DNA of 64,000 nucleotides from assembly GCA_030649135.1 (NCBI GenBank), contig JAUSGI010000004.1:32001-96000 (forward strand), in the 5' to 3' direction. The position numbers and the translations under genes are program-made. The DNA comes from a bacterium. GTDB lineage: Bacteria > Patescibacteriota > Minisyncoccia > Phycocordibacterales > Zambryskibacteraceae. The notes beneath the pieces are model-generated. The model was given only the letters and a program-made list of their open reading frames with translations, made no database searches and was not told where the DNA came from. Each line of letters begins with the position of its first letter. The first letter of the stretch is position 1. Shown here one piece after another: positions 41,004 through 63,506 of the stretch.

Positions 41004-41060
41004 ATGGCTATTGTATCAAAAACAAAAAACACCCGATTAGGTGTTTTTTGTTTTCTACCG

Positions 41061-49594: not shown

Positions 49595-49672
49595 GCCATT
49601 GTACTCTAGAGCCGGAATCCGCCCAAAGAAAATGCCCCACCCTCCGGGAGGGTGGGGCGCGCTTGCGGGTGG

Positions 49673-50881: not shown

Positions 50882-50888
50882 TCAATTT

Positions 50889-50918
50889 CCTTATTCTCCT
50901 ATTCGAGCGAATTAGAGA
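50889..50918 (+). repeat. ArsR-associated imperfect palindromic repeat, copy 1
   Basis: CTTATTCTCCTATTCGAGCGAATTAGAGAT; arms ATTCTCCTATTCG / CGAATTAGAGAAT. Confidence 0.8.
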
Positions 50919-51162
50919 TATATTTTGAGATGTGGTGGGGTTGCGAGGGGAGTCGGTACCACATTTGAAGGCCCCTTTGTTCTTTCTCCACAATATCCAC
51001 TGCGGCCAGCACATGGAGATGTTTGGAAGTAGCCTTGAATGAGAGTTTGATATGCTCGGCGATGTCCCCGACGGTAGCTTCCTTGCTCTTTTTCAAATAT
51101 TTAATAATAGTCAGGCGTCTCTGATTGGCTAAAGCTTTAAGTAGTCTTTCGAGATTTTTCAT
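50899..51162 (-). CDS. ArsR/SmtB-family transcriptional regulator
   Basis: LKALANQRRLTIIKYL...TVGDIAEHIKLSFKATSKHLHVL wHTH; the last three codons lie inside repeat copy 1. Confidence 0.8.
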   Translation of the reverse strand: MKNLERLLKALANQRRLTIIKYLKKSKEATVGDIAEHIKLSFKATSKHLHVLAAVDIVEKEQRGLQMWYRLPSQPHHISKYISNSLE

Positions 51163-51185
51163 ACCTATATTGTAAACTGCTTTGG

Positions 51186-51223
51186 CTTATTCTCCTATTC
51201 GCGCGAATTAGAGAATAGATTTG
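51186..51223 (+). repeat. palindromic repeat copy 2, in the divergent arsR / 51260 promoter region
   Basis: CTTATTCTCCTATTCGCGCGAATTAGAGAATAGATTTG. Confidence 0.8.
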
Positions 51224-51259
51224 GATGATTTGATGATAAAATAAGGGAGGAGGTGTCAT

Positions 51260-52438: not shown

Positions 52439-52486
52439 ACCATAATGATAACATCTGGGGCTTTGTTTTATATAGGATTGGTTCGG

Positions 52487-52524
52487 CTTATTCTCCTATT
52501 CGAGCGAATTAGAGAATAGATTTG
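52487..52524 (+). repeat. palindromic repeat copy 3, upstream of the 51590..52438(-) gene
   Basis: differs from copy 2 at one position (A vs C). Confidence 0.8.
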
Positions 52525-52534
52525 TATAAATAGA

Positions 52535-53063: not shown

Positions 53064-53330
53064 ATGAGAGATGATATGCGGGTGAGCGAGTTCAGATTAG
53101 ATGAAGATTTCGACCGTGACGAGTTCGTAAAGGCGTTCAAGACCTACTTCGAGGGAGGTGATGCCAAAGATCTGGAAGTTGTTCCCGACGCGATTTTGTT
53201 TTATAAAGGACGAGTGTCGCTTATTCTACTATTCGCACGAATTAGAGATGTAGAGGGGGGGGATTGGGTTGACAATTCAAATAATATATCATACACTTTT
53301 GAAAGAGCCACATGCGTGGCTATGCTCTAA
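53064..53330 (+). CDS. small acidic protein, paralog B
   Basis: EFRLDEDFDRDEFVKAFKTYFEGG aligns to paralog A; leader GAGGAGGTGTGATATG is conserved; repeat copy 4 and a G8 tract lie in its 3' end. Confidence 0.45.
   Translation: MRDDMRVSEFRLDEDFDRDEFVKAFKTYFEGGDAKDLEVVPDAILFYKGRVSLILLFARIRDVEGGDWVDNSNNISYTFERATCVAML
53220..53250 (+). repeat. palindromic repeat copy 4, degenerate, inside the 3' end of the 53064 ORF
   Basis: CTTATTCTACTATTCGCACGAATTAGAGATG. Confidence 0.7.
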
Positions 53331-54042: not shown

Positions 54043-54098
54043 ATCGCCCCGCCTGATGAATCGCCCCGCGGCTCATCAGGCGGGGCGATTTTATTTTA
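54043..54098 (+). terminator. strong hairpin terminator after the PDE-like gene
   Basis: ATCGCCCCGCCTGATGA ... TCATCAGGCGGGGCGAT (17-bp stem) then TTTTATTTTA. Confidence 0.65.
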
Positions 54099-54109: not shown

Positions 54110-54138
54110 GTTTGTAAGTGCCCCAAATTTGTGGGATA
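54110..54138 (+). promoter_or_regulatory. conserved promoter/operator motif, copy 1 (dinB)
   Basis: GTTTGTAAGTGCCCCAAATTTGTGGGATA; a -10 TGTATAAT follows. Confidence 0.55.
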
Positions 54139-54177
54139 GGGTCGGAACAGGAATATAGTCCGCTGTATAATGCTCGG

Positions 54178-55410
54178 ATGGCGCGAGAAAAGACCATTTT
54201 ACATATGGATGGAGATGCCTTCTTCGTCGCCTGTGAGGTCTCGAAGAATCCCAAGCTCAAGGGTAAAGCAGTGGTGACAGGCGAGGAGCGCGGGATAGTC
54301 TCGGCCCTCTCATACGAAGCGAAGGCGCTTGGGGTAGTTAGAGGCATGCCGATATTTTCCTTGCGCAAATCGTTTCCAAGTGTCTTAGTGCTGCCGGGAG
54401 ATTATGCTTGTTACGCGCGACTCTCGGGAGAAATGTTTGACATCGTGAGGAGGTATGCCGACGAGGTCGAGGAGTACAGTATCGATGAGTGTTTCGCCGA
54501 TCTCTCCGGCCTAGATAAGCCGCTTAAAATGAGTTATAGAGAAATTGCGGAGCGGATAAAGAAAGAAATCGAAAGCGAACTTAGACTCTCTGTCTCTATC
54601 GGGCTCGGGCCCTCAAAGGGGCTCGCCAAGGTGGCGTCGAAGTGGCAGAAGCCCAATGGTCTTACAGTGATAGAAGCAAAGACGGCCCCAGATTTTCTCA
54701 AAAAGACTCCGATTGAGAAAATCTGGGGCATCGGCCCGCGCACAGCAGAGTTTCTAAAGAAGAAAGGAATAGGAACTGCCGGCGAGTTCGCCTCGCGTGA
54801 ACTCGCCTGGGTCAGAAAGGAACTTTCCAAACCTTACGAAGTTATTTGGAGAGAGCTCAACGGTGAATACATCATGGAGTTAGACCCCTTGCCGAAGACT
54901 GTCTATTCCTCTGTCCAGAAGACAAGGACATTTCACCCGGCGACAGGGGACAAAGTCTTTCTCCTCTCCGAACTTTCTAAGCATGTGGAAGAAGCGTGCC
55001 GCAAGGCGAGGTACTACCACCTCGTACCGAAGAAGTTTTCTTTTTTCCTCAAGAGCCAGAGCTTCAAATATTTCTCTTACAATATAAATCTTCCCTCGCC
55101 CACTAATGCTCCGGAGACGCTGGTCGCTCTAGTCCGTAAACATTTCAAAGAAGTTTGGAGAGAGGGAATACTCTTCCGTACCACTGGAGTGGTGTTGCAA
55201 GAGCTTGCTCCGAGAGCGGCAATGCAGGGAGATTTGTTCGGAGGCTCCGATAGAGCCGGTAAGTTTGAAAAGATTCATGGTCAGATCGACGCTCTGGAAG
55301 AGAAGTTCGGCAAGTCGGTAGTCTATCTCGCCTCCACTCACCAGTCCCTGAAGCGTAAAAAGGTCGGCACCGACTCCGACGACCTCGACCGCAACCTGCT
55401 GTTTTTGTGA
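54178..55410 (+). CDS. dinB: Y-family DNA polymerase IV
   Basis: ILHMDGDAFFVACE...; little-finger domain; ~410 aa. Confidence 0.9.
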   Translation: MAREKTILHMDGDAFFVACEVSKNPKLKGKAVVTGEERGIVSALSYEAKALGVVRGMPIFSLRKSFPSVLVLPGDYACYARLSGEMFDIVRRYADEVEEYSIDECFADLSGLDKPLKMSYREIAERIKKEIESELRLSVSIGLGPSKGLAKVASKWQKPNGLTVIEAKTAPDFLKKTPIEKIWGIGPRTAEFLKKKGIGTAGEFASRELAWVRKELSKPYEVIWRELNGEYIMELDPLPKTVYSSVQKTRTFHPATGDKVFLLSELSKHVEEACRKARYYHLVPKKFSFFLKSQSFKYFSYNINLPSPTNAPETLVALVRKHFKEVWREGILFRTTGVVLQELAPRAAMQGDLFGGSDRAGKFEKIHGQIDALEEKFGKSVVYLASTHQSLKRKKVGTDSDDLDRNLLFL

Positions 55411-55412
55411 GG

Positions 55413-55442
55413 GTTTGTTTTAAGCCAAAATTTGTGGGATTA
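55413..55442 (+). promoter_or_regulatory. conserved promoter/operator motif, copy 2 (ATPase gene)
   Basis: GTTTGTTTTAAGCCAAAATTTGTGGGATTA. Confidence 0.55.
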
Positions 55443-55460
55443 TTTTGTGCAAGTATATTT

Positions 55461-56606
55461 ATGGATGTAGAAATAAAGAAACAACCAAAAACCAGCATTA
55501 CTGAGGATATTGATTGTGTAATTAAGCTTGAGCCACTTACAATTTTTGCTGGGAATAATAATTCAGGTAAGACTCATTTGATTAACGCTATAGGGAAAAA
55601 ACTGTCTGAGAATGACATAAATGTTGTGCATATCCCAAGTGAGAGGATACTTGTAGAGAATGAATTGAAGACAGGAGCAGAAAAGGATCCATTAAGAGCG
55701 GCTCTCGGTGATTTGATTGAGTTTGCTTTTGATGCCGACAGTTCAATCTCTAGTGATGTTTCTGATATCTCAGTAATACTTCCTGCTGAATTTATACAAT
55801 ATGGTATTGAGAATATAGATATTTCGGTAAAGACAAACACTCTCACTAACGATGAATATAAAAAAGCTTTAAAAGATGCTCACATAAAAAAGCTTATCGA
55901 TTCCATAGTTATATCTGACAAATACTGTGGAGTTGAGGACATAAGTCCATCAAATGTGGGTCAAGGAACACAAAGAATGATTGTCGTTTCTCTAATTAGA
56001 TATCTACAGCGTAAAAAATTTGAGAAGGATGGTCGAACAAGTAAACCAACATATATTATTTTTGAAGAACCAGAGATATACCTTCACCCAAAAATGAAGG
56101 CAACCTTGTATGCACTAATTCAAGCCATAGCTAATGATGGAAGATTGAATACTAAAGTTATCTTAACTACCCACGACCCATACTTTATTGATATGGGTAG
56201 AAATGCAAAAATTTATCGGGTCTTTAGGGATCCTTTGAAGAATTTTTCTACACAATTAATGGATGTACAAAAAGACGTATTACTGTACCCATCTTCTGCA
56301 GAAATAAACTATATTGTATTTGAGCAGGTTAGCCCTACTTATTTACTTGAATTGTATGAAAGTAAAAAACAAGAAACTGAATTAAAGCTTGGAAAGAAGT
56401 TGGGAGGTCTTAAGTATTATGAATTCGATCTAGCTTTATTTAATAAAATTGGAGAACCTCAATCTTCTACTGATGATGATGGACATCCCGTTACGTTTAT
56501 AACTCGGATAAGGCATGATATGGCACACCCCTCTACCTCCATATTAGATTCTTTTGAGTCTAGAGGAAAGGAAGCTATTGAAAAATTAAGAAATTACAAA
56601 GCTTAA
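55461..56606 (+). CDS. AAA15/AAA21-type ABC-like ATPase (PtuA/OLD-N-terminal-like)
   Basis: Walker A GNNNSGKT; Q-loop/signature-like NVGQGTQR; Walker B TYIIFEEPEIYLHP; H-loop LTTHDP. Confidence 0.7.
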   Translation: MDVEIKKQPKTSITEDIDCVIKLEPLTIFAGNNNSGKTHLINAIGKKLSENDINVVHIPSERILVENELKTGAEKDPLRAALGDLIEFAFDADSSISSDVSDISVILPAEFIQYGIENIDISVKTNTLTNDEYKKALKDAHIKKLIDSIVISDKYCGVEDISPSNVGQGTQRMIVVSLIRYLQRKKFEKDGRTSKPTYIIFEEPEIYLHPKMKATLYALIQAIANDGRLNTKVILTTHDPYFIDMGRNAKIYRVFRDPLKNFSTQLMDVQKDVLLYPSSAEINYIVFEQVSPTYLLELYESKKQETELKLGKKLGGLKYYEFDLALFNKIGEPQSSTDDDGHPVTFITRIRHDMAHPSTSILDSFESRGKEAIEKLRNYKA

Positions 56607-56610
56607 ATCT

Positions 56611-56640
56611 GTTTGTAAAACTCTAAAATTTGTGGGATAT
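56611..56640 (+). promoter_or_regulatory. conserved promoter/operator motif, copy 3 (HNH gene)
   Basis: GTTTGTAAAACTCTAAAATTTGTGGGATAT followed by a GGAGG SD. Confidence 0.55.
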
Positions 56641-56653
56641 TTGGAGGACAAAC

Positions 56654-57841
56654 ATGGAAGATGAAATAAAGCGATATTTTGAGGGCATAGATCTTGATAT
56701 TCGGAAGCAATCTCGGGGCTATTCACGCTTCATGGATCAGAAAGTTGCTCCAGATGTCCTGTCTTTTATTGCTGATTCTGTAGTCAATTCTATGGATGGA
56801 AAGGAGCCTGGTACCACCTTTACCATTGGTGATGTATGGGAGTTTCCTTACTTTGTAAAAAATACAGAAGCTGTATTCGGGAAACCCTCTCCAGAAAATG
56901 AAACCACGGAATCTGAGTATGATAAATTTATCGCCCAGCCCTTAAAAACCCTTGCTTTTGCTAAGATTCTGGAAGAAGAAAAAGTTGGAGGGAAAAATAC
57001 ATATAAGGTTCTAAGGCCCGATATTTTGGAGTATATTTCTCAAAGCGAGAAAAACGCCTTTATATTTTTAGTCCTCTATATTGAAAAGGTTTTATCTGAC
57101 AGTGGATTCATAAAAAACTTCGAGGAATATAGGGAAAAGGCGCAGTCAAATAAACTAAAACCAGAAGATCTTGAAATATTAAAAAAAAGATTCCAAAAAT
57201 TCATTTTGGGCAATACCAATATAAATGGCGTAATAGAAATAAATAGAGTATTTCCGAAAGTTCTAAATCCTTATGCAGCTTCACATCAAATTCCAGGAAT
57301 AGAAAGGGGGCACATAACTTCTGGTAGATTTATTTACCCAGATCTCATGTATAACCGAGAAAATTTTAGGGACATTGGAAAAGACAAGACTGTAAGTAGA
57401 CAAGAAGCGTTAAGAGAAATTACTCAGCAGCCAGAAGTTGTTGAATATCGAGTTCAAAAAGCAAAAAGTATTATACGGCGCCATCATTCAAGTAGTGAGG
57501 TTAAGGATAGCTTGGCAGTAGGCGAAGCGACTCAGGTTCATCATATTTTTTCAGACCATGAATTTCCTGAAATATCTGATTATATTGAAAACCTTATTTT
57601 ACTAACACCTCAGCAGCACAACACAAGAGCTCATCCAAAAAATAAAACAAATACCGTTGACGCAGAGTATCAAAGGGAATGCTTGTTATCTAAAATTGAT
57701 TCGATTGAGATGTCCGTAAGTAAGCGAGACAGCCTGTATTCTAAGGAAAGATTTATACACGTTGTGAATATTGGCTATGAACTTGATCTCTCGACAAATA
57801 CTAGTTTTGAAGAATTGAGAGATATTATTCGAAAGAGATAG
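56654..57841 (+). CDS. HNH-motif protein (PtuB-like partner) with a large N-terminal domain of unknown function
   Basis: C-terminal region QVHHIFSDHEFPEISDYIENLILLTPQQHNTRAH (HH...N...H); start at MEDEIKRYF (the listed ORF uses an upstream TTG). Confidence 0.55.
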   Translation: MEDEIKRYFEGIDLDIRKQSRGYSRFMDQKVAPDVLSFIADSVVNSMDGKEPGTTFTIGDVWEFPYFVKNTEAVFGKPSPENETTESEYDKFIAQPLKTLAFAKILEEEKVGGKNTYKVLRPDILEYISQSEKNAFIFLVLYIEKVLSDSGFIKNFEEYREKAQSNKLKPEDLEILKKRFQKFILGNTNINGVIEINRVFPKVLNPYAASHQIPGIERGHITSGRFIYPDLMYNRENFRDIGKDKTVSRQEALREITQQPEVVEYRVQKAKSIIRRHHSSSEVKDSLAVGEATQVHHIFSDHEFPEISDYIENLILLTPQQHNTRAHPKNKTNTVDAEYQRECLLSKIDSIEMSVSKRDSLYSKERFIHVVNIGYELDLSTNTSFEELRDIIRKR

Positions 57842-57845
57842 TTTT

Positions 57846-60365
57846 CTAGCGATTTATGCCAAAAAAGAATACTGAATTATTGTCGATGTTTAAAGATCTG
57901 GTACCGTGATTCCTTGCTACTCGATAAAATTGGGTGAATTCGTCTGTTCCAAAATAATCAAGGTCTTTTAGAGTTATCTTAGCTCCGGGTTCTTTTAGGG
58001 TGAGGATTGCCACAGACCCATCAACAAGCGTGTTCTCTGGTAAAAATGAAGCTCTGGGAGCATAGGTCAGGTTTGGCACCAAGACGCTATTTTCTTTATT
58101 CCAAAACTTAGAGATTGATAACCCGTCTAACGAATCAACATAAGAGTCATAATTTGGAATGTTCAGGATCTCATTTCGTCCGATATTTCTTGATTTCAAT
58201 ATTCTTATTTTCCCCTTGTTTTTTGTTATCTTTTTTGTAATTTGTCGATCTCTGTAAGATGTAAATATATTGAATCGAAGTTTTTTTGCAACGAAGTCAA
58301 AGAATTCATTTCTGTACACCAACCAGTAAGGAAAATCTTTCGAACAAATATAAGATTGATCTTTATAACCAATTTCGTTTTTTACATAAGACTCAACGAG
58401 AGTCCGGGCCCCTTTATTACGAGTATTGATAATCAAACTGATTGTCTCAATCTTCACACCCCTGAACCCTTTTTCTCCATAGTCTGTGATTTTTTCAATG
58501 GCAAATGACGAAGCAAGTTCTCTTGTTTTGTTAAATTCGGGTGCTGATAGAAAACTTTTGGGAATAATAAGACCTACGGTATCTCCTTGTTGCATTGCTT
58601 TCTCGAGAAAAAAAGAAAATAGATTATTTGTTTCGGCATTATATTTATTCTTCTTATAAGTGTTTAGGAGAACTTTATTTTCAGATATATCTCCGAATGG
58701 TGGATTGCCAATAACGATATCGTATCTTTTAGATTGGCCAAATAAATTAGTCTCTCCATGCAATAGAAAATCTGCGTTAATTAAATTGATCTTGATATTT
58801 TTTGGAACATCAAGTTTTTTTAGTAAAAGTTTAAGAATCTCAATTGCATTTTTGTCGATATCAACTACATCAATAGTTACCTCCTTAACTGTTTTATATT
58901 TTTGAACAAGAAGCGGGAGAAAATTACCAGCACCGACTGATGGTTCTAATATAGAAAGTTTTTCAAACTTTGATACATCAGGAAGATCTTTTACTATAGT
59001 GAAGCAAATGTCCTGTCTGGTGTAATACGCGGCGTGCTGAAGACGTTGGGCATTTGAAAGCTCGACGATTTTAGCTAATTCGGGGTAGCTAAAATTTTGC
59101 ATATTCTCTTCGAGAAAAGTCTTAATATTTTCTTCTATATTAAGCCTTTCATCTTGGATTAATTTTTTTATTTGGATTTCATTATTTTCAACATTTCTAA
59201 GCTTTGACTTGATATTTTTAGCTATACCGTTGAATATAATTGTGGGGACTGCCTCACCTAGTGATTGTCTTATATTTATCTCTTCTTTCTTGAGAATTTT
59301 CCTCTTTTCTTCATTTGACAACTTATTTAATTCATCAAGCGGAGTAGATACCCAATTAAAAGAATCTGGTACGGACATCATTCTCATTAACTCTCTAATA
59401 CTAAATACCCTGTTATCTTTTGGATGAATGGTTGCTTGGCTCGCAAATATATCGTTTCGGGTATGTATACAAGGAGCAACTTTATCCCAATAACATCGTG
59501 AGTATTTATCTCCGTTCTTGTTTTCATTGTGTACAATCTTTCCGTTTATGATTTGGTGAGGTCGCTTTTTGGCATCAGTATTATCAAACGCAGATTGTCC
59601 CTCCTTGGTATTCTCAATCCAAGAAAGCATATGCTCAGCGTACGGACGAAAATTGTGATAGATGTCCTTTTTATCAATCTCACCCATATTTTTAAGAGAT
59701 GAAAGGTTGCCTATCGTATCACGCAAGGTACCACCATCTTTCAATACTGGCATTAGATCAAGAGGTGTAACTTCTTGAATATCTTTTCGTACTCCTATAA
59801 CGAGTGTTCGGGTTCTACTCGATGGATTACCATAATCTTTGAAATTGATTACTTGATAGTGGATGTTATATTTACCTCCAAGATTTACTTCAATTGCTTC
59901 ACGAATTTGTTTTTGTTTCTTATCGATGTCAGTGCAGAGTGTAGATAGAAAAGCCCTCACATTCTCAAATATAAAAACTTTCGGTCTAATTTCATCTACA
60001 ATTTTTATTGATTCAACGACAAGAGAATTTCGTTCAAGCTCATCCCTTTTTTTGTGATTGGCTACAGACATACCCTGACATGGGGGTGTTGCCAATAAAA
60101 CTTCAACTTCTTTTAAACCTTGCTTTGATTTCCAGAGATCAATTTCTGAAAATATTTTTTCTTGAGTGGCTTTTTTTGTGATGTCATCAGCAATATAACC
60201 ACTTGGATATAAACACTTATTATTATGTCTTTGCACATCCAAACGTCTGTTCATAAGTTCAACAGTTGCAACACAATCAAATCCTTCTTTAGAAAAACCA
60301 TAGCAACCAACGCCGGCGCTACTGAATAAACTTATATATGTTAATTTTTTATTTTGGTTTTTCAT
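57846..60365 (-). CDS. fused DNA methyltransferase: N-terminal C5-cytosine MTase plus C-terminal N6-adenine (gamma-class) MTase
   Basis: C5 motifs: I (FSSAGVG), IV (PPCQGMS), VI (FENVRAF), X-like (GEAVP). N6A motifs: I (LEPSVGAGNF), IV (NPPFG). 839 aa. Confidence 0.75.
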   Translation of the reverse strand: MKNQNKKLTYISLFSSAGVGCYGFSKEGFDCVATVELMNRRLDVQRHNNKCLYPSGYIADDITKKATQEKIFSEIDLWKSKQGLKEVEVLLATPPCQGMSVANHKKRDELERNSLVVESIKIVDEIRPKVFIFENVRAFLSTLCTDIDKKQKQIREAIEVNLGGKYNIHYQVINFKDYGNPSSRTRTLVIGVRKDIQEVTPLDLMPVLKDGGTLRDTIGNLSSLKNMGEIDKKDIYHNFRPYAEHMLSWIENTKEGQSAFDNTDAKKRPHQIINGKIVHNENKNGDKYSRCYWDKVAPCIHTRNDIFASQATIHPKDNRVFSIRELMRMMSVPDSFNWVSTPLDELNKLSNEEKRKILKKEEINIRQSLGEAVPTIIFNGIAKNIKSKLRNVENNEIQIKKLIQDERLNIEENIKTFLEENMQNFSYPELAKIVELSNAQRLQHAAYYTRQDICFTIVKDLPDVSKFEKLSILEPSVGAGNFLPLLVQKYKTVKEVTIDVVDIDKNAIEILKLLLKKLDVPKNIKINLINADFLLHGETNLFGQSKRYDIVIGNPPFGDISENKVLLNTYKKNKYNAETNNLFSFFLEKAMQQGDTVGLIIPKSFLSAPEFNKTRELASSFAIEKITDYGEKGFRGVKIETISLIINTRNKGARTLVESYVKNEIGYKDQSYICSKDFPYWLVYRNEFFDFVAKKLRFNIFTSYRDRQITKKITKNKGKIRILKSRNIGRNEILNIPNYDSYVDSLDGLSISKFWNKENSVLVPNLTYAPRASFLPENTLVDGSVAILTLKEPGAKITLKDLDYFGTDEFTQFYRVARNHGTRSLNIDNNSVFFFGINR

Positions 60366-60369
60366 GAAT

Positions 60370-60984
60370 TTATAGTGTTCTAATTATTTTTTCTACTATA
60401 CCCCTAATCTCAACTTGTTTTCGGTAAAAAGGTTTGAGGTTTTTATTTGCAGGCTGTAATCTGATTTTCCCTTTTTCCTTATATATTTTTTTAAGTGTTA
60501 CTTGATTGTCGTCAATGATGGCCACGGCAGTTTGTCCATTATCAGCTACGTTTTGAGATCGAATGACAACAATATCTCCATCAAAGATTCCATCCTCAAT
60601 CATACTGTCTCCTTTAACCTGTAGCGCATAGTGTTGAAAAGGTAGTTTGATATCACTTCTCGGGACGGTAATTGTTTTTTCGTTTATTTCCATTGCTTCA
60701 ATAGGCTCTCCAGCTGCAATACTACCAAGCAGTGGAATTTCTACGGTCGATTTTTCTTTCATCGTAGAAATAGTTCTTGGTTGATTTTCTTCTTTTGTGA
60801 GTAAACCCTTTTTTTGTAAGTGTTTAATGTGGAAATGGGCTGTTGAGACGGAAGCAAGTTTAAAATTTTGCTGTATTTCTACTAAAGAGGGAGCATACCC
60901 ATTCTTTTTTTGTGATTGCTTCACAAAATCTAGAACCATTTTTTGTTTTTTAGTAAGCATAGATATTGACATACTATTTATCAC
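60370..60984 (-). CDS. lexA: LexA repressor (S24 peptidase)
   Basis: LexA DNA-binding domain (LTKKQKMVLDFV...GYAPSLVEI); AAGEP Ala-Gly cleavage site; GDSM Ser and TLKK Lys. Confidence 0.85.
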   Translation of the reverse strand: MINSMSISMLTKKQKMVLDFVKQSQKKNGYAPSLVEIQQNFKLASVSTAHFHIKHLQKKGLLTKEENQPRTISTMKEKSTVEIPLLGSIAAGEPIEAMEINEKTITVPRSDIKLPFQHYALQVKGDSMIEDGIFDGDIVVIRSQNVADNGQTAVAIIDDNQVTLKKIYKEKGKIRLQPANKNLKPFYRKQVEIRGIVEKIIRTL

Positions 60985-61085
60985 GGAGGTATACTTCCAT
61001 TATAGAAGGAAAATAGAAGGTCTACAAGACCTACTTATCCACACCTCCTATATAAAGATCGAATTAGTAATAGTTCTAAAAAAAT

Positions 61086-62656: not shown

Positions 62657-62746
62657 GACGCTTACTGGAGCCGTCGCATAGTGGTCTAGTGCGCCTCACT
62701 GCTAACGAGGTAGGGTCTAAAAGCCCTCGAGGGTTCAAATCCCTCC
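62657..62746 (+). tRNA. tRNA-Ser (anticodon GCU), type II with long variable arm, CCA encoded
   Basis: GGAGCCG acceptor pairs with CGGCTCC; anticodon loop CTGCTAA; variable arm AGGG...CCCT; T-arm GAGGG-TTCAAAT-CCCTC; G-CCA 3' end. Confidence 0.8.
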
Positions 62747-62804
62747 GGCTCCGCCAGATGACCAAGTTTGAACCGAAGCAAAATAAGGATATATTACCCA
62801 AATT

Positions 62805-63506
62805 ATGACCCTACTAGAACTCAAACGAAAATTGAGAGCCATTCAAGCTCTCGGATTTGTAAAGACACATCGTACAGGTGATACAGGCATTGGGAAAACG
62901 CTCGAGGATCTTCTTGGTATTAAAGAAAACAATATCCCACTTCCTGATATCGGCGAAATAGCAGAACTCAAAGCATATCGAAAAAATGCAACATCAATGC
63001 TGACGCTTTTTACGCTTGAACCTCGACCTAAAGGTGGAGATCGCGATCGAGTACTTCTGGATAGTTTTGGCTATTCAAAAAGAGATAATGGTCGCTCAAA
63101 AGAATTGCATAGCACTCTTTCGTGTAAGCGTTACAACAATCAAGGTCTGAAGCTCAAGGTTGAGAAAGATAAAGTGCGAGTCGTTGGCAAAGGCAGGAGA
63201 TTAAATATTTACTGGGACATGGAGGATCTCCAAAAGAAATTCGAGGCAAAATTGCCAGCCTTAGTATATGCACTAGCAGACTGTAAAGAAGTAAGAGGTG
63301 TCGAGCATTTCCATTTTAACCAAGCTTTCTTTTTAGAGGGCTTCGATTTTGAACACTTCAAAAGTCTGGTAAAGAAAGACGCCATTGTTGTAGATTTTAG
63401 AATGTTTTATCGTCCAAGTGGCTCCGTCCGTAATCACGGCACTGGTTTTAGGGTAAAAATAAAACAACTCTATAACTGCTTCGACACAAAGGTTGAGCTG
63501 ATTTAA
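62805..63506 (+). CDS. Type II restriction endonuclease, MvaI/BcnI-like
   Basis: TGDTGIGKTLEDLLGIKENNIPLPDIGEIAELK...SMLTLFT matches my recollection of the MvaI/BcnI family N-terminal region; convergent with an MTase. Confidence 0.6.
   Translation: MTLLELKRKLRAIQALGFVKTHRTGDTGIGKTLEDLLGIKENNIPLPDIGEIAELKAYRKNATSMLTLFTLEPRPKGGDRDRVLLDSFGYSKRDNGRSKELHSTLSCKRYNNQGLKLKVEKDKVRVVGKGRRLNIYWDMEDLQKKFEAKLPALVYALADCKEVRGVEHFHFNQAFFLEGFDFEHFKSLVKKDAIVVDFRMFYRPSGSVRNHGTGFRVKIKQLYNCFDTKVELI

Follow-up and report, generated by a model that had tools for sequence, protein, structure and literature searches.

The DNA considered here is a 64-kb stretch of a Patescibacteria chromosome (the window, i.e., the whole stretch analyzed, 64,000 nucleotides (nt) in length) that includes genes for EF-G, EF-Tu, SecY, FtsH, RecG, RecJ, MurC, tmRNA and tRNAs, and in which the same short motif precedes each of three consecutive plus-strand genes. 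The sequence of the window recurs on a contig from a metagenome and in SRR13727527, and a 98-kb NCBI contig of a metagenome-assembled genome (MAG) encodes an identical DinB. The three genes are dinB, encoding DNA polymerase IV (54178..55410; Pfam IMS, IMS_C and IMS_HHH), the homologues of which are Patescibacteria DinB proteins; an AT-rich cargo gene encoding an AAA_15/AAA_21 ATPase of the OLD/AriA/GajA-like class (55461..56606), in which no Toprim or nuclease domain was detected; and a gene encoding a type II restriction endonuclease (56654..57841; PADLOC REase_II, E = 4.6e-94). The endonuclease, which gave a sub-threshold HNH match (E = 0.021, residues 291-323), is probably of the HNH type. 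Beyond these genes, on the minus strand, are found a gene encoding a fused C5-cytosine and N6-adenine DNA methyltransferase (57846..60365), the partner of the endonuclease, and lexA (60370..60969), the first gene of a lexA-methylase operon. As the lexA product scored 188 bits against the curated model TIGR00498 (cut-off 111), the claim made in a first-pass annotation of the window, namely, that a bona fide lexA lies some 4 kb away, was confirmed.

When the window was searched for the pattern GTTTGT-N9-AAATTTGTGGGAT, exact matches were found at only three positions, namely, 54110, 55413 and 56611. The number expected by chance is 0.07 (shuffle mean), and none of 100 shuffled sequences reached three matches. 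With up to three mismatches tolerated, no further match appeared in the 64 kb, and the 10-mer TTTGTGGGAT likewise occurs as an exact match in the window only at these sites, termed W1, W2 and W3. Copy W1 (28-mer GTTTGTAAGTGCCCCAAATTTGTGGGAT; 54110-54137, plus strand) ends 40 nt before the dinB ATG (54178). Copy W2 (28-mer GTTTGTTTTAAGCCAAAATTTGTGGGAT; 55413-55440, plus strand) begins 2 nt past the dinB stop codon and ends 20 nt before the ATPase ATG (55461), while W3 (28-mer GTTTGTAAAACTCTAAAATTTGTGGGAT; 56611-56638, plus strand) begins 4 nt past the ATPase stop codon and ends 15 nt before the endonuclease ATG (56654). All three copies are intergenic and sense-oriented toward the following ORF, exactly as had been described when a single motif directly upstream of three consecutive genes was first proposed. 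Immediately after W2, the G+C content drops from about 51% to about 35%, remaining at this low level up to the window's end.

Because the reading frame of the motif relative to the downstream ORF differs at each of W1, W2 and W3, the motif is not coding and a coding-sequence reading could be ruled out; longer gene calls (430, 399 and 403 residues) that start within the motif are open-frame artefacts. A dispersed repeat of the MITE or REP-like kind was also rejected, the three copies in the 64 kb being clustered and having no inverted ends.

Immediately before W1, an intrinsic-terminator-like hairpin followed by a T run (54043..54098, plus strand; inverted repeat I1, 22-nt arms, 91% complementary) closes an upstream gene encoding an HD-domain protein. 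No terminators were found between dinB and the ATPase and endonuclease genes. Between W1 and dinB lies a predicted proximal dinB promoter of the leaderless type (54164..54177, plus strand), in which TG-TATAAT (hexamer at 54166-54171) is followed by GCTCGG and then ATG, leaving 6 nt to the start codon. A CTGTATAATGC block is kept before dinB in this and in four related loci (L080, L081, L077/L078 and L079).

Similar arrangements are seen elsewhere in the window, where at least seven genes, dinB included, are preceded by TACAAT, TATCAT, TAAAAT or TATAAT, then 6 nt and then ATG. Examples of TAnnnT placed 6 nt before an ATG without a ribosome-binding site are found at 41004-41020, 49595-49612, 51163-51180 and 52439-52456 on the minus strand and at 54164-54177 on the plus strand. 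As such, leaderless transcription seems to be common in the source organism. The dinB ORF itself holds a perfect 17-bp inverted repeat (54685-54701 and 54713-54729), in which the APDFL codons and the EKIWG codons are reverse complements of one another. L080 and L077 likewise have a perfect repeat, which decays in homologues that are distant; it may represent a conserved hairpin or have arisen coincidentally through the choice of codons.

Conservation of the motif and its reading as a promoter

Copies of the motif were also found outside the window. A scan of a genome collection (one genome per species), using an exact pattern with 19 specified bases, returned four matches, approximately the number expected by chance, of which one was informative. 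This match (L003, later L081/L082) belongs to a MAG labelled Candidatus Saccharibacteria, the DinB of which shares 76% identity with that of the window. L081 contains three copies, the first of which (with two mismatches) precedes a tag-dinB pair, tag encoding 3-methyladenine glycosylase, the second of which starts at the dinB stop codon and precedes a gene encoding a 520-residue SMC/AAA-type ATPase, and the third of which precedes a MazG-like gene. In L080 (DinB 88% identical), one copy, orthologous to W1, is found before dinB and one after. A 124-bp direct repeat (99% identical) brackets dinB here, and the two copies of the motif form its 3' ends. In L077/L078 (DinB 80% identical), a variant of the motif precedes an ORF of 74 residues that itself precedes dinB. 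No copy was detected in L076 (DinB 83% identical) or L079 (78%), or in the more distant Patescibacteria loci L062, L064 and L067 (DinB 72-73% identical).

The nine copies thus available for alignment (W1-W3, three from L081, two from L080 and the one L077/L078 variant) come from four lineages, with the six copies from outside the window occupying matching places ahead of the dinB operon and right behind the dinB stop codon, where the genes that follow vary from genome to genome. As the DinB proteins of the motif-bearing lineages are only 76-88% identical to that of the window, neutral intergenic bases should have diverged, such that an identical block of 10-13 nt implies selection. A metagenome scan with a spacer one base too long (TTTGT-N10), which serves as an off-by-one control only, returned 56 single-copy matches of very diverse base composition, with none of the eight most motif-like loci presenting a convincing downstream gene. 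A viral-contig scan with the correct spacing returned three matches that had no -35-like hexamer and flanks unlike those of the copies at dinB loci; as these look like chance matches, a phage origin is not evident and was rejected.

Within the nine-copy alignment, TTTGTG and AT (A-11/T-10) in the 3' block and two T's in the 5' block are invariant, while the nine bases between the two conserved blocks vary freely. The two invariant upstream T's correspond to positions 1 and 4 of a -35 hexamer. This hexamer reads TTGTAA, TTGTTT or TTGTAC in six of the nine copies, such that TTG is intact in these six, TGGTAA in one and TTTTCA in two. In every copy, the spacer between the hexamers is 17 nt long and TGTG occupies positions -17 to -14, corresponding to a -16 element of the Gram-positive style, with TG at -15/-14. 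In the -10 hexamer (GATnAT), A-11 is present in all nine copies and T-7 in seven, with position -12 being G in eight copies and T in one. In the window, W1 (54110..54140, plus strand) offers a -35 of TTGTAA (54112-54117), a spacer ending in TGTGG and a -10 of GATAGG (54135-54140); W2 (55413..55443, plus strand) a -35 of TTGTTT (55415-55420) and a -10 of GATTAT (55438-55443); and W3 (56611..56641, plus strand) a -35 of TTGTAA (56613-56618) and a -10 of GATATT (56636-56641). The hexamers and 17-nt spacer assigned in the first-pass annotation therefore hold at all three sites. In the L077/L078 variant, replacement of GGGAT by GGTAT creates TGG-TATCAT, followed by CTATAA and ATG, that is, an extended -10 found 6 nt from the start codon, the same geometry as in the leaderless promoters of the source organism, including the TATAAT-GCTCGG-ATG of dinB.

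The earlier description of the motif as sigma70-promoter-like is hence supported by the conservation of the -35, -15/-14, -11 and -7 bases at a constant 17-nt spacing across the nine copies, and by the TGnTATCAT of L077. The position of W1 fits such a reading, since a promoter is needed after a terminator. A direct TTTGT repeat that had been pointed out within the motif is indeed present in the copies of the window but is lost in L080 (TTTTCA) and L077 (CTGGTA), and is probably incidental; a predicted -35 hexamer explains the data better than does a repeated half-site.

It had been recognized from the start that the motif might prove to be a generic strong promoter, common upstream of unrelated genes. 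A weight matrix constructed from the nine copies found no other site scoring over 14 bits, whether in the window or across 13 related loci. The absence of other copies, whether exact or weaker, despite the presence of ribosomal protein, EF-Tu and EF-G operons in the window, shows the motif to be specific rather than generic, and the latter possibility was rejected. On balance, the motif is likely a clade-specific sigma-A-type promoter found at dinB that also drives the varying foreign genes behind dinB. The start of transcription at the motif, the binding of a factor and the co-regulation of the genes are all inferred from the sequence.

Several points weigh against the motif being such a promoter. 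Position -12 is G instead of T in eight of the nine copies, and the sites fail a plain TTGACA/TATAAT consensus scan. Conservation peaks in the spacer (-19 to -13) and not in the -10 hexamer, where contacts with sigma-70 alone would predict otherwise. The start predicted for W3 (about 56648) lies just past the GGAGG ribosome-binding site of the endonuclease gene, and hence that site would serve only read-through transcripts. Since dinB has its own proximal promoter, W1 would be partly redundant. The L080 copies lie within the 99%-identical 124-bp repeat, such that gene conversion, and not selection, could account for part of the identity seen within that genome; conversion between the two L080 copies clearly operates as well. 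The motif, moreover, is used only around dinB, both in the window and in the related loci, and these loci are few and mostly short metagenomic contigs. That positions -19 to -10 are far better conserved than is the 3' half of the -10, together with the lack of use of the motif elsewhere nearby, led to the proposal that a dedicated factor, be it a regulator with a site that overlaps the promoter or a sigma factor of unusual specificity, probably reads TTTGTGGGAT at -19 to -10.

Another possibility is an alternative sigma factor of the sigma-B/sigma-F kind, with GTTTGT serving as the -35, GGGAT(A/T) as the -10, and dinB and its cargo comprising a stress regulon. The sigma-B/F promoters of Bacillus and mycobacteria read GTTT(aa)...GGGwAw, and the best-conserved bases of the motif include GGGAT, which is nearer to GGGwAw than to TATAAT. 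GTTT is found in six of the nine copies (W1-W3, one of the three in L081 and both in L080), and the motif is carried by very few promoters, as expected of a specialized sigma factor. Yet, GTTT and GGG lie 19 nt apart, as compared to 12-17 nt in the known families, a spacing some 2-3 nt too long. Were the spacer 15 nt in length, the -35 would read TTGTAA, matching GTTTAA at only four of six positions. The change from GGGAT to GGTAT in L077 improves a sigma-A -10 but damages the GGG box, and no sigma or anti-sigma factor gene was found among the roughly 40 window proteins scanned. As such, this alternative is considered unlikely. The same scan detected no WYL-type regulator.

A role for the motif in RNA, whether in processing, as a translational operator or as a small structured leader in a dinB-ATPase-endonuclease transcript, was also considered. 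With no terminators separating the three genes, the motif is probably also present in read-through RNA. At 56611-56653, such RNA could pair GUUUGU...CUCUAAA with UUUGGAG.ACAAAC, a weak structure (z = -1.7). This modelled W3 hairpin could mask the GGAGG ribosome-binding site of the endonuclease gene and so prevent translation of the endonuclease from transcripts that originate upstream. On the other hand, no Rfam match was obtained, no fold is common to the copies (z-scores of +1.1, -0.3 and -1.7), the copies lie anywhere between 15 and about 100 nt from the start codon, and W1 follows a terminator. An RNA-level function is thus held to be extremely improbable.

Other known elements were rejected upon direct comparison. 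The TGTGGGATA of the motif differs from a DnaA box at three of nine positions in an ungapped alignment, while sigma-D promoters (TAAA-N15-GCCGATAT) and ComK/competence boxes are misfits in both spacing and sequence.

A separate palindromic element, CTTATTCTCCTATTCGCGCGAATTAGAGAATA, is present in four copies in the window (50882-50937, 51178-51233, 52479-52534 and 53212-53267), with at least two of these being found in divergent promoter regions beside an ArsR-family gene (50899-51162). In L080, this palindrome (72-95 and 1493-1516) also makes up the 5' end of the 124-bp repeat on either side of dinB. It probably serves as operator for a small regulon of its own.

Gene turnover behind dinB and the lexA module

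W2 is orthologous to the copy that follows dinB in L081, given that the two share the 3' end of dinB, the motif itself and the next 12 nt or so (GGGATyATTTTGkGCAAG), with the 3' flank of W2, GGGATtATTTTGtGCAAG, matching the corresponding flank in L081, GGGATcATTTTGgGCAAG. Past GCAAG, the window and L081 carry ATPase genes, the products of which show no significant BLASTP similarity. The third copy precedes the restriction endonuclease gene in the window and the MazG-like gene in L081. In L080, the post-dinB copy faces a convergent gene and has no cargo, while in L078 a third ATPase, 26% identical to that of the window, is encoded behind dinB without the motif. The putative promoter is thus kept while the cargo behind dinB changes.

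Three different ATPases of the AAA_15/AAA_21 class are hence encoded directly behind dinB in three related genomes (L078, 3481-5198; L081, 11339-12901; window, 55461-56606), being either 26% identical or without significant mutual similarity. This could reflect a recurrent association or a hotspot for the insertion of defence ATPases. In the window, a tRNA gene (62667-62753) is followed by a gene encoding a second restriction endonuclease, of the MvaI/BcnI family (62805-63506), and the AT-rich DNA that begins at 55.4 kb and continues up to the window's end has the look of a defence island beside a tRNA gene.

The changing content of this position allows for the motif being chiefly a recombination or capture site for the exchange of cassettes behind dinB, whether by homologous or short-homology recombination or through an unrecognized site-specific recombinase, with its promoter-like appearance being secondary. 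Copies of the motif are found at the boundaries of units that differ in base composition and origin, and different genes follow orthologous copies. In addition, the L080 dinB is bracketed by the 124-bp, 99%-identical direct repeat that ends in the motif, as would be the case after a Campbell-type insertion, and the mobile module described below came to lie such that the ATG of its endonuclease gene is 15 nt past a copy. Against this, no integrase or recombinase domain was found among the neighboring genes, the motif presents neither dyad symmetry nor an attC-like structure, the junction with the cargo is found about 12 nt beyond the motif and not inside it, and no copy lies at the far end of the module, near 61050. 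Moreover, a variable 9-nt center between conserved blocks at fixed spacing is the signature of a promoter and not of a crossover site. As neither a recombinase nor a dyad nor a second copy at the boundary was detected, the motif as a dedicated capture site is a minor rival and is judged improbable.

Returning to the motif as a sigma-A-type promoter, the following mechanism is proposed. The motif would act as a cassette comprising a -35 of TTGTAA, a 17-nt spacer with a -16 element and a weak -10 of GATnAT. One copy would drive the dinB operon. A second copy, placed right behind the dinB stop codon, and a third, where a genome has one, would transcribe whatever gene follows. The post-dinB position would be filled by different horizontally acquired genes, namely, those for the two dissimilar ATPases, the restriction endonuclease and the MazG-like hydrolase. 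With dinB and its foreign neighbors each being started from the same kind of promoter, they would probably be expressed together.

It had also been suggested that the motif ties the polymerase to a nuclease/ATPase module. These genes do not, however, form one unit, since the endonuclease belongs with the methylase and lexA, whereas the ATPase gene is a separate insertion. Together, lexA, the gene directly downstream encoding the fused C5 and N6 methylase (839/840 residues) and the convergent gene encoding the endonuclease of 390-400 residues form a conserved, mobile three-gene restriction-modification unit. This module was identified at 56654-61043 in the window and in L068, L069, L070, L071 and L072. 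In the three other Patescibacteria contigs read, LexA is 83-92% identical and the gene order is the same, and the neighborhoods of the module are unrelated, lying beside gyrA, beside EF-P and SSB genes, or beside polysaccharide genes. Upstream of the same endonuclease gene in L068, L070 and L072, the motif is absent; it is present only in the window.

Examination of the conserved lexA promoter (60985..61043, minus strand) revealed TGTGGATAA at 61035-61043, the reverse complement of the consensus DnaA box, followed by TTGTAG-N17-TATAAT. Tandem CCTTCTAT repeats (61001-61020), arranged as CCTTCTAT-TTT-CCTTCTAT, cover the spacer and the -10 of this promoter. Across four diverged copies of the module, TGTGGATAA is identical and the tandem CCTTCTAT repeat nearly so, with the latter being a candidate operator of the module LexA. 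LexA appears to act here as a restriction-modification regulator. Other homologues join the two functions in one protein: P0228, P0187, P0215 and P0227 are in-frame fusions of a complete LexA (DNA-binding and S24 peptidase domains) to a DNA methyltransferase, which is of the N6/N4 type (motif DIFCGSGT) in the first two and of the C5 type (motif DLFAGIGG) in the last two. Methylase domains are present in some 14 of the 120 top-ranking LexA homologues.

The presence of dinB among the three genes and of lexA nearby had originally been taken to suggest a shared, possibly damage-responsive regulon. In this model, the motif would be the operator of the neighboring LexA, and dinB, the ATPase gene and the endonuclease gene would comprise an SOS regulon. 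dinB is a core SOS gene that is controlled by LexA in other Patescibacteria, a true LexA homologue is encoded 4 kb away, and shifts in LexA motifs between lineages, including to direct-repeat forms, are documented (PMC8565304, PMC7739468). Nonetheless, when the region upstream of lexA was compared with the motif, as had been recommended, the TGTGGATAA box and the tandem CCTTCTAT repeat were seen, and nothing resembling the motif. At up to three mismatches, the lexA promoter contains no copy, no weight-matrix match above threshold was obtained there, and this promoter is conserved across copies of the module with quite different elements. The module is found elsewhere without the motif, and the motif elsewhere (L081, L080 and L077) without lexA in the sequence examined. 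The TTTGT direct repeat is not conserved, being lost in L080 and L077, and no dyad is present. The recG and recJ genes of the window are not preceded by the motif; recA, uvrA and ssb are absent from the window. With no copy at the lexA promoter, no conserved half-sites and no match to the box of relatives, the motif was rejected as a member of the LexA-box family. A damage-responsive regulon shared through this LexA is accordingly not supported, lexA being part of a mobile module that occurs independently of the motif, and the operator model is deemed very unlikely. Co-regulation of dinB with its downstream neighbors via a factor other than this LexA is plausible.

In more distant Patescibacteria, canonical GTGAAC-N4-GTTCAC LexA boxes, of the classical Gram-positive type, are found on leaderless dinB promoters (L062, 3760; L064, 9968; L067, 9974 and 13880). 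GAAC-N4-GTTC is absent throughout the window and from all motif-bearing loci, and at the spot upstream of CTGTATAATG that corresponds to the LexA box, no intact box is found in the window or in L081. A recognizable SOS operator on dinB thus appears to have been lost in the motif-bearing clade, where the motif lies upstream of dinB instead. One could go further and imagine that the LexA box was replaced by an operator embedded in the promoter and read by a damage- or stress-sensing factor, with the copies acting as a landing pad that places acquired defence genes (the restriction endonuclease, the OLD-like ATPases and MazG) under the dinB signal, so creating a LexA-independent, damage-linked defence island in a minimal genome. 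Such a scenario is conceivable but doubtful.

Significance and comparison with known systems

Almost nothing is known of how transcription is organized and regulated in Patescibacteria, the members of which mostly cannot be grown alone. The locus described here offers a concrete case, namely, a putative promoter element that is conserved base for base across diverged genomes, in a clade without the classical SOS operator on dinB, and that seems to be re-used to express incoming foreign genes beside dinB. If a specific factor reads the motif, this would represent a new form of joint control over an error-prone polymerase and defence genes. The attractive inference that drew on the nearby LexA can also be corrected, with this LexA apparently regulating the restriction-modification unit with which it travels; that in some relatives LexA is fused to the methylase makes it of interest in itself. 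No description of the motif or of a LexA-linked restriction-modification unit was found in the papers examined. The motif is best described as a predicted lineage-specific promoter or regulatory element, one that can be compared with four known systems.

Like the GAAC-N4-GTTC LexA boxes of other Patescibacteria, the motif is found in the promoter region of dinB, of all SOS genes the one conserved most widely, where it lies in the regulatory space that the LexA box vacated. Unlike these boxes, it shows no dyad or conserved repeat symmetry, has no copy at lexA, bears no likeness in sequence and occurs independently of the lexA module.

As in integron cassette arrays, consecutive genes of foreign composition lie in one orientation, are accompanied by the same short repeat and turn over between strains. 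By contrast, the motif is located 5' of the genes and is promoter-like, rather than being a 3' attC hairpin, and the genes would each be served by a separate promoter and not by one common Pc. No integrase or recombinase is encoded by the flanking genes, and the motif folds no better than does shuffled sequence. An integron attC site was accordingly rejected, given that the motif lacks a dyad, lies 5' of the genes and has no accompanying integrase.

The closest system in concept is the mycobacterial RecA-NDp motif used by PafBC, a LexA-independent damage promoter. In both cases, DNA-repair genes have in common a conserved block that lies inside the promoter, just upstream of the -10, in place of a LexA box. 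The sequences are, however, unrelated, and no WYL/PafBC-like gene was seen in the window.

Finally, the motif resembles those Gram-positive sigma-A promoters that contain a -16 TRTG element or an extended -10, with its TTGnnA -35, 17-nt spacer, TGTG at -17 to -14, A-11 and, in most copies, T-7. Its copies are intergenic and sense-oriented before ORFs, and the L077 variant offers a textbook TGnTATCAT. It differs from such promoters in having G-12 in eight of the nine copies, ten near-invariant bases from -19 to -10 and a preceding A/T tract, and in being confined to the surroundings of dinB, which points to an added specificity factor.

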